The notes under the pieces are model-generated. The model was not told the DNA's origin. It was given only the letters and a program-made list of their open reading frames with translations, and did no database searches. Position numbers and translations under genes: made by a program. Below are positions 1,785-3,447 of a stretch of DNA of 5,784 nt, one piece after another. Origin of the DNA: a virus (lineage: Duplodnaviria; Heunggongvirae; Uroviricota; Caudoviricetes); IMG/VR virus record IMGVR_UViG_2671180770_000006. One strand, 5' to 3'. How positions within the stretch are numbered: the stretch's first letter is position 1; every line of letters begins with the position of its first letter.

Positions 1785-1940
1785 TCACTCACCTGAGTTT
1801 CTCTCCAGCCAGCGACGGGCACCATTTTCGGTTTTAAACGTTTTGCTTTTGGTATACGTCATCGCGGTGAATGTGCCGTCCTGGTTGGGAAACACGCCGT
1901 ACACCAGAGATTCGTTGTTGCCAAGCTCGATAGTATCCAT
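1785..1940 (-). CDS. Hypothetical small protein, 51 aa (MDTIELGNNESLVYGVFPNQDGTFTAMTYTKSKTFKTENGARRWLERKSGE); first gene of the leftward early operon
   Basis: Hand-translated; ATG at 1940..1938 with GAGGT 4 nt upstream on the minus strand; stop at 1787..1785 is coupled to the next gene. Confidence 0.5.
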   Translation of the reverse strand: MDTIELGNNESLVYGVFPNQDGTFTAMTYTKSKTFKTENGARRWLERNSGE

Positions 1941-2011
1941 GCTGACCTCATTTCCCCTTAACGCCGGGTGGCGGAACTAAAACCTACAGCGCCGTGCTGT
2001 TCTTGATGGGA

Positions 2012-2040
2012 ATATTAGTAACGCGGATATTTTAAGTCAA
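2012..2040 (-). promoter_or_regulatory. PL-like sigma70 early-left promoter (minus strand: TTGACT, 17-nt spacer, TAATAT)
   Basis: -35 TTGACT is the reverse complement of 2035-2040 and -10 TAATAT the reverse complement of 2012-2017, with a 17-nt spacer. It sits upstream of the leftward small-gene operon and its spacer/-10 closely resembles the PR-like promoter. Confidence 0.5.
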
Positions 2041-2137
2041 CAGTATGGCGTATGATATTTTTGATTTGGTAACTATGTAAATGTTTTTTCAAGGGAAAAA
2101 TATTAGTTATACAGCTGATTTGCAAAAGTTATGGCAC

Positions 2138-2193: not shown

Positions 2194-2655
2194 CTACTGG
2201 TTACGTTTCTTTAGTGCCAGCATGTTCTCGAAGGCTTCCTCGTAGAGCTTGTTTAGTCCACGTAGCTGGTTAAGGAGTTTGGCTTTTTCTGACGCAGGTA
2301 GAATCTCGAAGAGGTTAAGTAACTCTGCCTGTTCTTCATTGACCAGCCTCCATCCTTTGCCTGAAAAGTTATCATCATAATTATCTGATGATCTTACATA
2401 ATTCATTAAGTCTTTAAGGTCTTCTCGAATGTCCTCTGGTTTTACCTTTAACAGAGCCGCAAATTTTAGCGCAGCGTCGGTATTTACCGGTATCTTGCCG
2501 TTCAGATACTGGCTAACGGTGCCTTGAGATTCGAATCCCAACAACTCAGCCGCCAGCTCTTGAGTCAGCTTCAGCTCTTTTTTTCTTGCATTCCATGCGG
2601 CTTTTAAATTCTTGCTCGCTTCTGGAGTTGCAATCACTTCGCGTGTTTTTTTCAT
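2194..2655 (-). CDS. racR: Prophage immunity repressor, CI/RacR-like, XRE-type HTH near the N-terminus, 153 aa; no recognisable LexA/S24 autocleavage domain
   Basis: HTH-like segment LTQELAAELLGFESQGTVSQYLNGK; divergent from a Cro-like gene across about 100 bp; terminator immediately downstream; C-terminal half lacks a peptidase-like motif. Symbol given by architecture match to the Rac RacR-YdaS-YdaT module, not by verified identity. Confidence 0.8.
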   Translation of the reverse strand: MKKTREVIATPEASKNLKAAWNARKKELKLTQELAAELLGFESQGTVSQYLNGKIPVNTDAALKFAALLKVKPEDIREDLKDLMNYVRSSDNYDDNFSGKGWRLVNEEQAELLNLFEILPASEKAKLLNQLRGLNKLYEEAFENMLALKKRNQ

Positions 2656-2661
2656 ACATAG

Positions 2662-2689
2662 AGTTTATTTGTTTTACCAATATTATCAA
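2662..2689 (-). promoter_or_regulatory. PRM-like promoter for the repressor (minus strand: TTGATA, 16-nt spacer, TAAACT), predicting a leaderless or near-leaderless repressor mRNA
   Basis: -10 TAAACT ends 6 nt before the repressor ATG and there is no SD upstream of that ATG, analogous to lambda cI transcribed from PRM. Hexamers read from the sequence; the start site is inferred. Confidence 0.4.
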
Positions 2690-2693
2690 AGAC

Positions 2694-2702
2694 AGTCTGA
2701 CT
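2694..2702. promoter_or_regulatory. Palindrome AGTCtGACT between the divergent -35 elements; candidate operator
   Basis: 9-bp dyad with a central T, positioned between the PRM-like and PR-like -35 hexamers. Confidence 0.3.
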
Positions 2703-2703
2703 A

Positions 2704-2732
2704 TTGATCTTTAAAATTAGCGGGGCTAATAT
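2704..2732 (+). promoter_or_regulatory. PR-like sigma70 early-right promoter (TTGATC, 17-nt spacer, TAATAT) with embedded inverted repeat ATTAGC-GGG-GCTAAT (2716-2730)
   Basis: -35 at 2704-2709 and -10 at 2727-2732. The 6-3-6 inverted repeat occupies the spacer and overlaps the -10, a typical operator position. About 30 nt upstream of the Cro-like ATG. Confidence 0.55.
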
Positions 2733-2762: not shown

Positions 2763-3038
2763 ATGAACTTAAGAGACTATTTAAAAGAGAAACATATCAC
2801 CCAGCTACAGTTTGGGAAGCTAACGGGTTTATCTCAGGTGCATGTAAGTCGAGTGCTGGGGGGCTATGAAAGATTCAGCCCTGAAAAAGCATTACGTGTT
2901 GCTGAAGTAACGAATTTCGAGGTTACACCTCATGAACTCCGGCCTGATATTTACCCGAATCCAACCGACGGCTTACCTGTTGGATTCAAGGCTAACACAC
3001 CAAATGCATCGGAGTTGATTCATGAAAATCAGGCATGA
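2763..3038 (+). CDS. ydaS: Cro-like small HTH regulator (YdaS family-like), 91 aa
   Basis: ATG at 2763 with GAAGG 6 nt upstream (the track's 2757 start is a TTG). HTH-like ITQLQFGKLTGLSQVHVSRVLGG and an ELRPD motif; divergent from the repressor. Symbol is by family resemblance. Confidence 0.75.
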   Translation: MNLRDYLKEKHITQLQFGKLTGLSQVHVSRVLGGYERFSPEKALRVAEVTNFEVTPHELRPDIYPNPTDGLPVGFKANTPNASELIHENQA

Positions 3039-3447
3039 GCACATCCGCATGGCGATGAATGCCTGGGCGCGTCCTGATGGCGAAAAAGTTCCAGCAGCTG
3101 GAATAACCCAGGCTTATTTTGAGTTGGGTATGACGTTTCCTGAACTGTATGACGACAGCCATCCGGAAGCCCTGGCTCGCAATACACAGAAAATTTTCCG
3201 CTGGGTAGAGAAAGACACCCCTGATGCAGTTGAAAAAATTCAGGCGTTGTTACCAGCGATCGAAAAAGCAATGCCGCCTCTGCTGGTGGCCCGAATGCGC
3301 AGCCACAGTTCAGCTTATTTTCGGGAGCTGGTGGAGACGCGGGAACGACTGGTGAGAGACGCTGATGATTTTGTCGCAGTGGCGATCGCTGGTTTCAACC
3401 AGATGAATCGTGGTGGCCCGGCGGGAAATATTGTGGTTGTGCATTGA
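3022..3447 (+). CDS. ydaT: YdaT-like protein (reported CII-type functional analogue in Rac/CP-933P-type prophages), 141 aa
   Basis: N-terminus MKIRHEHI and C-terminal ...VVVH match my recollection of YdaT-family proteins; GGAG 7 nt upstream; overlaps the Cro-like stop by 17 nt, consistent with coupling. Assignment is from memory, not a search. Confidence 0.7.
   Translation: MKIRHEHIRMAMNAWARPDGEKVPAAGITQAYFELGMTFPELYDDSHPEALARNTQKIFRWVEKDTPDAVEKIQALLPAIEKAMPPLLVARMRSHSSAYFRELVETRERLVRDADDFVAVAIAGFNQMNRGGPAGNIVVVH

Follow-up and report, generated by a model that had tools for sequence, protein, structure and literature searches.

The window, i.e. the whole stretch of 5,784 nucleotides analysed here (IMG/VR record IMGVR_UViG_2671180770_000006, Caudoviricetes), almost certainly spans the immunity region of a Rac/Qin-type lambdoid E. 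coli prophage, with positions 2007-2108 as its PL/OL control region. The immunity repressor is a 153-aa protein encoded on the minus strand (2194-2655), which PHROGs places in repressor families and which joins a lambda-CI-like N-terminal HTH to a DicA-like C-terminal helical tail: the N-terminal domain matches that of lambda CI in the PDB, and DicA shares 38% identity with the C-terminal 42 aa. BLASTP detected no similarity to the N-terminal domain of DicA, and no sequence match to RacR was detected. Pfam matches are to HTH_3 and HTH_31 only, the S24 peptidase domain being absent, and distant homologues that bear PF00717 align to the repressor over the HTH alone. On its sequence we judge the repressor to be orthologous to neither DicA nor RacR, and to represent an immunity specificity of its own in a shared architecture. 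Divergent from the repressor gene is a cro-like HTH gene of the YdaS family (2763-3038, plus strand), the 107-bp intergenic region containing the early promoter PR and a PRM-like site; the cro-like YdaS and cII-equivalent YdaT genes downstream of PR match PF15943 (30.9 bits) and PF06254 (39.6 bits), respectively, and a YdaT-like site, TTGATTcatgaaAATCAG, occupies 3015-3032 at the ydaS/ydaT junction. A candidate YdaT site in OL was rejected, only a lone TTGATT being present there; the junction site is the real YdaT-like one. The leftward (PL) operon opens with ydfA/ydaF (DUF1391; 1785-1940, minus strand; Pfam E=7e-28, 96 bits), an identity also given by RefSeq annotation of near-identical loci, and includes DicF (70.5 bits) and a DicB-like ORF at 55-246. 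An intrinsic, bidirectional terminator hairpin (2136-2169), recognised from its fold and from a perfect inverted repeat with 14-bp arms flanked by an A-run and a T-run, closes the repressor transcript, and an equivalent hairpin is found in all relatives. The module is carried by 180 of 5,426 E. coli genomes (~3%) and by phage Rac-SA53; a scan of genome contigs for it returned three loci only.

The two early promoters lie either side of the repressor gene, with sequences and coordinates that agree with those in the first-pass annotation. PL, directed leftward (2012-2040, minus strand), has TTGACT as its -35 (2040-2035) and TAATAT as its -10 (2017-2012), separated by the 17-nt spacer TAAAATATCCGCGTTAC; it is supported by both the sequence and a promoter scan and is kept in all relatives, the pattern TTGNNN-17-TAATAT occurring at this position in every repressor subgroup. 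Since its operon begins with ydfA and extends to dicF and dicB, PL is the counterpart of dicBp of Qin, which in the Qin alignment lies at an equal position relative to the shared leader. The fold of the PL leader is no more stable than those of shuffled sequences. PR (2704-2732, plus strand) comprises TTGATC (2704-2709), a 17-nt spacer and TAATAT (2727-2732), and is the promoter of the cro-like ydaS, of ydaT and of the replication genes. The earlier description of PL as a near-duplicate of PR is too strong, as ungapped comparison from the -35 to -10+1 gives only 20 matches in 30 and ten of these sit in the promoter hexamers; the two resemble one another because they follow one promoter plan (TTGAYN-17-TAATAT), into which a common operator is apparently built. 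The promoter scan also identified the PRM-like site (2662-2689, minus strand; TTGATA-16-TAAACT), from which transcription is predicted to begin at the A of the repressor's ATG, a geometry that would yield a leaderless mRNA of the kind known for cI and paaR2 (PMC8630535), and a secondary promoter-like site (2052-2081, minus strand; TTTACA-18-TATCAT) with 10/12 matches. The hexamers of the latter are polymorphic (TTTAGT/TTTACT; CATAAT/TATTAT/TATAAT), and in the alignment the site is absent from the Enterobacter relatives.

The proposal that both early promoters carry a common regulatory site is supported by a 15-bp frame that they share, by natural variants and by the 15-mers of related subgroups, and it is highly likely, as judged from the sequences, that this site is a repressor operator of the form ATTAG-N5-CTAAT (6-3-6: ATTAGC-N3-GCTAAT). 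In both promoters the frame ends 4 nt into the -10 (ATTAGCGGGGCTAAT at PR, ATCCGCGTTACTAAT at PL). OR1 (2716-2730, plus strand) is a perfect palindrome, ATTAGC-GGG-GCTAAT, within the PR spacer and -10. The putative primary operator OL1 (2014-2028, minus strand; ATCCG-CGTTA-CTAAT on the PL strand), at which the repressor would bind, reaches from the spacer through the fourth nucleotide of the -10 and is both a degenerate copy of the OR1 frame and the top match of a position-weight model built from the five candidate operators. Across some 45 natural variants the pattern is the one that an operator should show, with conserved arms around 5 central bp that are hypervariable: for OL1 this holds in 44 variants (centre 2023-2019), and for OR1 in 30, with only two singleton changes in the arms, both in the same variant (L078), and at least 12 haplotypes in the central 5 bp (2721-2725). 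Non-singleton polymorphisms occur at 14/20 positions in operator centres, 7/40 in arms and 26/280 elsewhere (Fisher 1e-9), and each related repressor subgroup has its own 15-mer in the same place in PL and PR. The GC core that had been put forward, with TTAAAAT, as the shared site corresponds to the variable centre, and is probably uncontacted. Precedents for such operators are the footprinted O1-O3 sites of Rac racR/ydaS, which have the same 6-3-6 layout ((T/A)TAGGC-n3-GCCTA(T/A), here ATTAGC-n3-GCTAAT; PMC9638921), DicA Oc (TTGTTAGTCATAACTAACAA; PMC3441716), and the PaaR2 OR/OL sites and PL933P (PMC8630535). It counts against the operator model that, in both OL1 and OR1, the CTAAT right arm is confounded with TAATAT, the universal -10. 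A covariation between residue 6 of the recognition helix (Q/H) and arm position 5 was considered and rejected, the L017 group (QATVSH with ATACG/ATGCG) breaking the pattern.

Weaker candidate operators can be placed on either side of the repressor gene. The OL2 candidate (2039-2053, minus strand; ATACG-CCATA-CTGTT) overlaps the -35 of PL at a lambda-like spacing of 25 bp from OL1; it is a weak motif match that resembles OR2, its centre is hypervariable, and its right arm has the same A/G polymorphism as OR2. The OR2 candidate (2691-2705, plus strand; GACAG-TCTGA-CTATT) would lie 25 bp from OR1, overlapping the -35 of PR, and is polymorphic at 2693, 2697, 2700 and 2703. Both of these candidates depend mainly on spacing. 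The OR3 candidate (2667-2681, plus strand; ATTTG-TTTTA-CCAAT, ACCAATATT), in the PRM spacer and 24 bp from OR2, is, like OR2, a weak motif match; in E. coli-type variants it is unchanged save for a singleton in L077, where A at 2679 is replaced by G. A middle half-site (2065-2070, minus strand; ACCAAA, with ACTAAA or ACTAAT in relatives), 26 bp from OL2, may be part of an OL3; its TAGTTAC flank is conserved, and it shows a C/T/A polymorphism at 2068, the arm position that varies also in OL1, in OR3 and in the distal copy considered below. A full operator frame at this middle site (2065-2079) was rejected, a credible left arm being found in no registration.

The first-pass annotation also noted that the motif over the PL -10, gggaatattagtaa (2008-2021), recurs as gggaaaaatattagtta (2093-2109), between PL and the terminator, and suggested that this second copy might be an auxiliary operator. 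The recurrence itself stands, whereas the distance of 85 bp that had been given applies only to the GGG triplets: the exact core held in common is the 9-mer AATATTAGT (2011-2019 and 2099-2107), the copies of which are 88 bp apart. The pattern AATATTAG(T/C) or AATATTGGT has four copies in the window and none elsewhere, at 2011, 2099, 2676 (minus strand) and 2725 (minus strand), and AATATTAG itself is seen three times against 0.12 expected from whole-window shuffles. On the earlier concern that AT-rich background alone could account for the repeat, dinucleotide shuffles of the local AT-rich stretch 2026-2193 give P=0.004 for recurrence of the 9-mer itself; the less specific test, which accepts every match of at least nine nucleotides that the PL core has with the region upstream of it, gives P=0.055. 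The single sequence is thus only marginally significant, and conservation in relatives therefore carries the argument.

What is conserved at the distal copy is the element ACTAATATTTTT (2096-2107, minus strand), which lies 88 bp upstream of its proximal counterpart and repeats exactly the right half-site of OL1 (ACTAATATT), with ATT in addition. The corresponding putative full frame (2102-2116, minus strand; AGCTG-TATAA-CTAAT) fails a match to the operator consensus on both half-sites, the right half alone agreeing; of its left arm AGCTG, 2/5 positions are kept in E. coli (A1, G5) and none in Enterobacter. The frame scores 11.5 bits in the position-weight model, equal to the leave-one-out scores of OR2, OR3 and OL2, and ranks 39th of 11,540 positions, a result that cannot settle its role because 0.56 chance matches are expected in 168 AT-rich bp.

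When both copies were sought in related prophages, the distal 12-mer was found to be kept, almost always at 88 bp from its proximal counterpart: it is invariant in nine diverse aligned sequences, Enterobacter included, with a spacing of 88 bp in eight of the nine first aligned and 87 bp in one, and IMG/VR homologues likewise show 88 bp in nearly all cases and 87 bp in a few. An alternative is that the distal copy is functionless, a short AT-rich word whose recurrence is due to chance or to some old duplication nearby and which looks conserved only through the close relationship of all its known carriers. Several results would fit such an origin: the P value of 0.055 and the position-weight score, which is within chance; the GGGAA part of the motif, which contrary to the original description is not conserved, GGG at 2008-2010 being ATA, AGA or GTG in relatives and the distal GGG becoming GAA in Enterobacter (plus strand; CCC to TTC on the PL strand); and the E. 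coli-type variants, which do not single out the motif because the whole block 2086-2193 is low in diversity. Nor do the natural variants include any by which the loss of the distal copy could be tested, none that keeps OL1 without it having been found and the extra pattern matches being unrelated chance occurrences. Against this, in the Enterobacter relatives, whose upstream flank cannot be aligned, homology breaks off precisely at the 12-mer, which remains intact amid 97 columns of 71% identity (P=0.013 for an invariant run of 12 columns); the alignment across genera shows no indel from one copy to the other; every other long run of invariant columns coincides with the promoter or operator arms; and a sister group with only 69% identity has a related block, ACACTAAAATTTTCATTAG, fixed 74 bp upstream of its OL1. 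We regard a functionless copy as rather unlikely. Within the 44 unique E. coli-type variants, four positions of the distal element have a single variant each: T to C at 2105 (giving ACCAAT), and singletons at 2100, at 2097 and in the T-run. The change from ACTAAT to ACCAAT, the sole one in the distal half-site, recurs at OR3 and in OL1 variants, and the sole non-singleton polymorphism of the putative frame (2110) falls in its centre. Clean covariation of the distal block is not seen in subgroups whose right arm differs.

Between the distal copy and the middle site lies a second conserved block, the A-tract AAAAAACATT (2080-2089, minus strand), with ten consecutive invariant columns between E. 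coli and Enterobacter. The A-tract block and the distal T-tract resemble an UP element. It is conceivable, albeit doubtful, that the distal copy and this A6 block together form an AT-rich upstream element that contains no repressor site, e.g. an UP-like contact for the alpha subunit, bent DNA or a patch for H-NS, Fis or IHF, which would determine how active or how silenced PL, or the secondary promoter (2081-2052), is, the likeness to a -10 then being a by-product of composition. The UP consensus, NNAAAWWTWTTTTNNNAAANNN, compared by hand, is matched at 11/14 specified positions at -59 to -38 of the secondary TTTACA (2081-2076), which speaks for an element of this type, as do the conservation of the T5 and A6 tracts, the presence of A8 and AAAATTTT at this place in the sister group, and the fact that one half-site alone is conserved. 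Interference of H-NS/Cnu with DicA at the Qin operator (PMC3441716) provides a further parallel. However, the secondary promoter is polymorphic and missing in Enterobacter, yet the distal block is kept; relative to the main PL the block would lie at approximately -90 to -100, past the normal reach of the alpha subunit; inspection by eye revealed no good or consistent IHF consensus in the distal block; and composition does not explain the exact 9-mer identity with OL1 or the conservation of ACTAAT.

As the distal core contains TAATAT, the universal -10 of this phage family, it might instead belong to a separate promoter, either a third tandem leftward PL or one on the plus strand, where a start near 2112 would give an RNA of about 60 nt that ends at the bidirectional terminator. 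The small hairpin and the terminator fold well, and sub-threshold Rfam matches were obtained for plus-strand positions 2096-2172 (STnc370, 30.7 bits against a cut-off of 54; IS128, 25.1 against 80). The fold z-score is, however, due to the terminator hairpin, which also drives the Rfam matches, and the sequence between motif and terminator is not conserved in Enterobacter; a plus-strand small RNA (2098-2172) was rejected on these grounds. The earlier statement that no good -35 accompanies the distal copy is borne out. The best candidate, TTGCAA, has a spacer of 14 nt, and nothing was reported by the promoter scan; in E. coli neither strand offers a -35 at 16-18 nt, and Enterobacter, whose sequence at this position is C-rich, lacks one altogether. 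A separate promoter is highly improbable.

The anatomy of the region, its pattern of conservation and its homology to systems already characterised are shown by the sequences; all protein binding, cooperativity and looping in the scheme that follows we infer. The repressor would most likely act as a dimer on 15-bp ATTAG-N5-CTAAT operators, the strongest being OR1 and OL1. As these lie between the -35 and -10 of both promoters and extend into the -10, bound repressor would block RNA polymerase and so silence the ydaS/ydaT/replication operon rightward and the ydfA-dicF-dicB operon leftward, with the weaker sites OL2, OR2 and OR3 (over PRM), in 24-26-bp steps, probably being filled cooperatively. 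The distal half-site would most likely be a low-affinity auxiliary site, its protein held there by contacts with repressor at OL1/OL2 or OR, and might serve to tighten repression of the toxic leftward operon or to block read-through past the repressor terminator. That the distal copy is an auxiliary operator is plausible, although we advance it only tentatively; it would not be "OL2-like" in the lambda sense, as it had been labelled, since the candidate 25 bp from OL1 at 2039-2053 is the better OL2. Taken with all its parts together, this explanation has our moderate confidence. A more specific possibility, which we consider questionable, is that the distal half-site is a true fourth repressor contact in OL, bridged to OL1 by a repressor whose DicA-type C-terminal domain would span the fixed 88-bp, A-tract-bent spacer, or alternatively joining an OL-OR complex across the 0.7-kb repressor gene. 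At ~8.4 turns for 88 bp and ~7.0 turns for the 74 bp of the sister group, no common helical phasing supports a loop. Were a fourth contact real, the complex would be compact and wrapped or looped, unlike the three-adjacent-site design of lambda, and the hypervariable centres would be where natural variants tune their hold on the toxic dicBF-type operon.

The module controls a cell-division-inhibitor operon of the dicF/dicB type together with prophage lytic genes, and knowledge of its operators would help to predict immunity specificity and cross-talk between Rac/Qin-like prophages. Lambda, Qin, Rac and CP-933P have already provided good descriptions of the architecture, so that the present result is mainly one of annotation: a further immunity specificity, with the proposed operator ATTAG-N5-CTAAT and one conserved upstream half-site. 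With lambda the module shares the homology of the repressor N-terminal domain to CI, divergent repressor and cro genes, operators that overlap PL and PR, with candidate sites here 24-25 bp apart, and an OL-OR distance (0.7 kb) that would allow OL-OR looping. In contrast to lambda, the operators are of 15 rather than 17 bp, and no isolated half-site is found ~90 bp upstream of lambda PL; the repressor also lacks the S24 autocleavage domain, so that induction presumably proceeds through an antirepressor.

The dicA/dicC/dicBp region of Qin has the same order of elements (cro-like gene, short non-SOS repressor, PL, ydfA (DUF1391), dicF and dicB), and its dicBp (TTGACC-17-TAATCT) is the positional equivalent, in the alignment, of the present PL; each of the two has its spacer and -10 filled by an operator that contains TTAG/CTAA, with another copy upstream (PMC3441716, PMC10448788). 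The DicA site Oc is, however, a 20-bp sequence (TTGTTAGT-CATA-ACTAACAA), the extra copy is ~35 bp away in Qin as against 88 bp here, and the terminator that separates repressor gene from PL belongs to the present locus. Rac resembles it in having three OR sites with A/T-rich linkers (PMC9638921), YdaS and YdaT downstream and ydaF in the left operon, and its OL, like that of Qin, has the same layout as the one here, the three Rac sites containing TTAGG and the outermost of them being a degenerate half-site. The outermost OL site lies ~45 bp from OL1 in Rac and 88 bp from it here, and the half-site sequence differs, as does the repressor, which has no detectable similarity to RacR. In the paaR2/ydaS region of CP-933P, a paaA2-parE2 toxin-antitoxin pair follows the repressor gene, where the present locus has the terminator only, and the operators are 18-bp palindromes bound by a PaaR2 that forms octamers. 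The two loci nevertheless share a lambda-like switch with PRM, PR and PL (PMC8630535), operators with a TTAGT core (half-site consensus GTTTAGTAA) that overlap the promoters, identical PL and PR hexamers and a leaderless repressor mRNA (predicted here), and the YdaT site of CP-933P, TTGATTN6AATCAA, has its counterpart at the same ydaS/ydaT junction (PMC8630535, PMC9986795).

An ORF map and family scans of the window show a lambdoid immunity region, and we are highly confident that 2007-2108 represents the PL/OL segment, i.e. the leftward early promoter with its operators, of a Rac/Qin/CP-933P-type lambdoid prophage. The repressor gene (2655..2194, minus strand; 153 aa, with HTH_3 the only domain) is divergent from a YdaS-family cro-like gene (2763..3038, plus), which is followed by a YdaT-family gene (3022..3447, plus) and then by replication genes. 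A perfect bidirectional terminator hairpin (2136-2169) separates the repressor gene from the leftward genes, with the ydfA/ydaF (DUF1391) gene (1940..1785, minus) and several small phage ORFs lying beyond it. As the leftward operon contains a full-length DicF sRNA (424-475, minus; 70.5 bits in Rfam, against a gathering score of 48) as well as a 63-aa DicB-like ORF (55-246, minus), the operator region studied here controls cell-division inhibitors; for STnc100 the Rfam search of the window gave a sub-threshold match only (211-426). A 91-aa ORF without a Pfam or PHROG match (811-1086, plus) occupies the opposite strand within this operon. Phage Rac-SA53 is 97% identical over the central 900 bp, where its genes are annotated dicA and dicC, and 180 of 5,426 complete E. 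coli genomes carry at least 80% of the same segment.

By gene content and operator layout the system groups with the Rac/Qin/CP-933P modules; it works like lambda OL/OR, and its PL corresponds to Qin dicBp. The repressor N-terminal domain matches that of lambda CI in a PDB search, identity to DicA is 38% over the last 42 residues, and sequence comparison detected no similarity to RacR, which together argue that the repressor is, as judged from its sequence, a separate immunity specificity inside this known architecture; orthology to either DicA or RacR failed on testing, so the specificity is a further one of a known kind. From a PRM-like promoter for the repressor gene, TTGATA-16-TAAACT (within 2655-2689, minus), transcription is predicted to begin with the A of the ATG itself, which is not preceded by a Shine-Dalgarno sequence; the repressor mRNA is thus probably leaderless, for which lambda cI and paaR2 are reported precedents (PMC8630535). 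The sequence TTGATT-catgaa-AATCAG (3015-3032, plus), spanning the ydaS stop and ydaT start, is a single mismatch away from TTGATTN6AATCAA, the YdaT operator footprinted at the same gene junction in CP-933P (PMC9986795).

Re-reading of the window bore out all sequences and coordinates in the first-pass annotation, in which PL was described as a near-duplicate of the rightward early promoter, PR. PL comprises TTGACT (2040-2035), a 17-nt spacer and TAATAT (2017-2012), and PR comprises TTGATC (2704-2709), a 17-nt spacer and TAATAT (2727-2732); both promoters have the form TTGAYN-17-TAATAT in all repressor subgroups examined. The likeness is real, but as ungapped identity is 20/30 the term is generous. 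Overall, the observation of PL/PR likeness and of a second motif copy is confirmed and the interpretation placed upon it is partly supported; nothing in the system would surprise a phage geneticist, the modest leads being a conserved half-site and hypervariable operator centres.

These centres belong to a 15-bp frame of two five-base arms and a five-base centre. In PR it is the perfect palindrome ATTAGC-GGG-GCTAAT (OR1, 2716-2730), ending 4 nt into the -10, and the same frame is found in PL as ATCCG-CGTTA-CTAAT (OL1, 2028..2014); candidate second sites with variable centres are OL2 (ATACG-CCATA-CTGTT, 2053..2039, minus) and OR2 (GACAG-TCTGA-CTATT, 2691-2705, plus). Relatives were drawn from E. 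coli genomes, from contigs that encode a repressor homologue at 58-92% identity, and from IMG/VR, metagenomes and a single scan of a genome collection, the variant set of this immunity type comprising 46 unique OL and 30 unique OR sequences. Among the latter the OR1 arms ATTAG/CTAAT are conserved, except for two singleton changes within one variant, and the central five bases occur as at least 12 haplotypes; in the OL1, OL2 and OR2 frames the variable part is again the centre. All four centres (2019-2023, 2044-2048, 2696-2700 and 2721-2725) are hypervariable among prophages otherwise 97-99% identical, with non-singleton polymorphisms at 14 of the 20 positions in centres, 7 of the 40 in arms and 26 of the 280 elsewhere in non-coding sequence (Fisher 1e-9 for centres versus these remaining non-coding positions, 1e-4 versus arms), although the OL2 and OR2 frames were picked partly by eye and the counts are not independent events because the sequences are related. 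This variability may reflect a natural adjustment of how tightly the operators bind or how strong the promoters are. The "GC core" earlier taken as shared is this variable centre, the conserved contacts being the AT-rich arms.

Each repressor subgroup examined has its own 15-mer at the same exact position in both PL and PR (e.g. ATACG-N5-CTAAT, ATGAA-N5-(C/G/A)TAAT, ATTAA-N5-TTAAT). The layout matches that of operators known from experiment, namely of the footprinted RacR operator, (T/A)TAGGC-n3-GCCTA(T/A) (PMC9638921), of DicA Oc, TTGTTAGTCATAACTAACAA (PMC3441716), and of the PaaR2 operators in CP-933P, where four repeats with the half-site GTTTAGTAA accompany OL1-3 at PL933P (PMC8630535); the OL regions of K-12 Rac and Qin have the same arrangement. 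The proposal that both early promoters bear the same regulatory site therefore holds, and PL and PR probably carry a common operator. In one other subgroup (loci L015 and L016, repressor 73% identical) the distal OL carries AATAATCATATTAATTT, ~85-115 nt past the repressor stop, which nearly equals ATTAATCATATTAAT, the PR operator plus spacer of another subgroup (L012); this hints that operator segments have been swapped between immunity types by mosaic exchange.

The claimed second copy, between PL and the terminator, exists, but the 85 bp assigned to it is the GGG-to-GGG distance: the exact word common to both copies, AATATTAGT, sits at 2011-2019 and 2099-2107, so that the cores are 88 bp apart. 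The GGGAA flank included in the motif is conserved in neither copy among relatives, which speaks against a function. If one mismatch is allowed, the window contains the word at four places only: in PL, at the distal copy, in PR (2725-2733, minus) and beside PRM (2676-2684, minus). In shuffles keeping the local AT-rich composition, recurrence of the 9-mer within 2026-2193 has P=0.004, and a less specific test, for any word of at least 9 nt common to the PL core and its upstream region, gives P=0.055; on a single sequence the repeat is suggestive, not compelling. As previously stated, a promoter scan found no -35 accompanying the distal copy, which counts against its being a separate promoter, whilst a small RNA there is opposed by Rfam hits that are sub-threshold only and by a body that is not conserved.

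A copy without function might simply be conserved by descent: 2086-2193 is nearly invariant in the E. coli-type set, so conservation there is uninformative, and no natural variant lacking the distal site was found among the relatives, which was counted against function. Three results favour a function: conservation in Enterobacter, the steady spacing of the copies, and a related block in a sister group. When both copies were sought in more distant prophages, ACTAATATTTTT was intact in two from Enterobacter (repressors 91-92% identical to that of the window) despite 71% identity over the 97 columns from distal to proximal copy (P=0.013 for the intact 12-mer under random placement of the 28 variable columns). 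Other long runs without change between E. coli and Enterobacter cover the -35 plus OL2 arm (14 columns), AAAAAACATT (10), the right arm of OL1 plus the -10 (9) and the left arm of OL1 (8). No indel separates the two across this interval, and upstream of the 12-mer they are not alignable at all, so the 12-mer lies at the outer boundary of the control region that is conserved. The copies sit 88 bp apart in 8 of 9 diverse sequences, the ninth having 87 bp, and almost all IMG/VR homologues likewise have 88 bp; the few at 87 bp differ via single-base changes in homopolymer runs. A sister group (repressors 69% identical, OL1 ATGAA-N5-CTAAT) retains a related block (ACACTAAAATTTTCATTAG), there at a constant distance of 74 bp; that the 88- and 74-bp spacings share no common helical phase counts against a function. 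A lesser point in favour is that among the 46 variants the sole substitution in the distal ACTAAT half-site is T to C (ACCAAT), a change also seen as a fixed difference in OR3 and as a polymorphism in two OL1 variants.

Also against a function, only the right half-site of the distal 15-mer is conserved, the left arm (AGCTG) being a poor match in E. coli and absent from Enterobacter. The 15-mer scores 11.5 bits in the position-weight model, comparable to what the weaker sites reach under leave-one-out, and ~0.56 hits of this level are expected by chance in the region. Since a more conventional OL2 candidate sits 25 bp from OL1, the distal copy is not "OL2-like" as first proposed; if an operator, it would be an extra outlying half-site, for which the third TTAGG site of Rac OL, ~45 bp from Rac OL1, is the closest precedent. 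That it acts as an auxiliary operator we hold tentatively, and with some doubt. Repressor would occlude PL at OL1 with assistance from weaker flanking sites, and the distal half-site would be the outermost low-affinity contact, filled via cooperative contacts between proteins; it could make repression of the toxic leftward operon tighter or, alternatively, act as a roadblock immediately past the repressor terminator. The copy might instead be an UP-like, bent-DNA or nucleoid-protein element: seen from the promoter-like TTTACA-18-TATCAT (2081..2052, minus), the T5 and A6 tracts are a reasonable match to the UP consensus, but this promoter is polymorphic and Enterobacter lacks it. This promoter-like sequence (10/12 matches, 41 bp upstream of PL) has a perfect TATAAT in some natural variants and may be a tandem second leftward promoter.

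The PL leader (1941-2004, minus) is kept across all repressor subgroups and the K-12 Rac and Qin prophages. Its small CAGC-ACGGC-GCTG hairpin (1986-2000) precedes a U-rich stretch, after which GTTCCGCCACCCGGCGTTAAGGGG extends to the ydfA start; the leader folds no more stably than shuffles and may have a nut-like or attenuator role. Polymorphism also clusters just downstream of the PL and PR -10s (2008-2011, 2735-2736), in the discriminator or start-site region, where PL variants have CCC, TCT, TAT or CAC directly after the -10.
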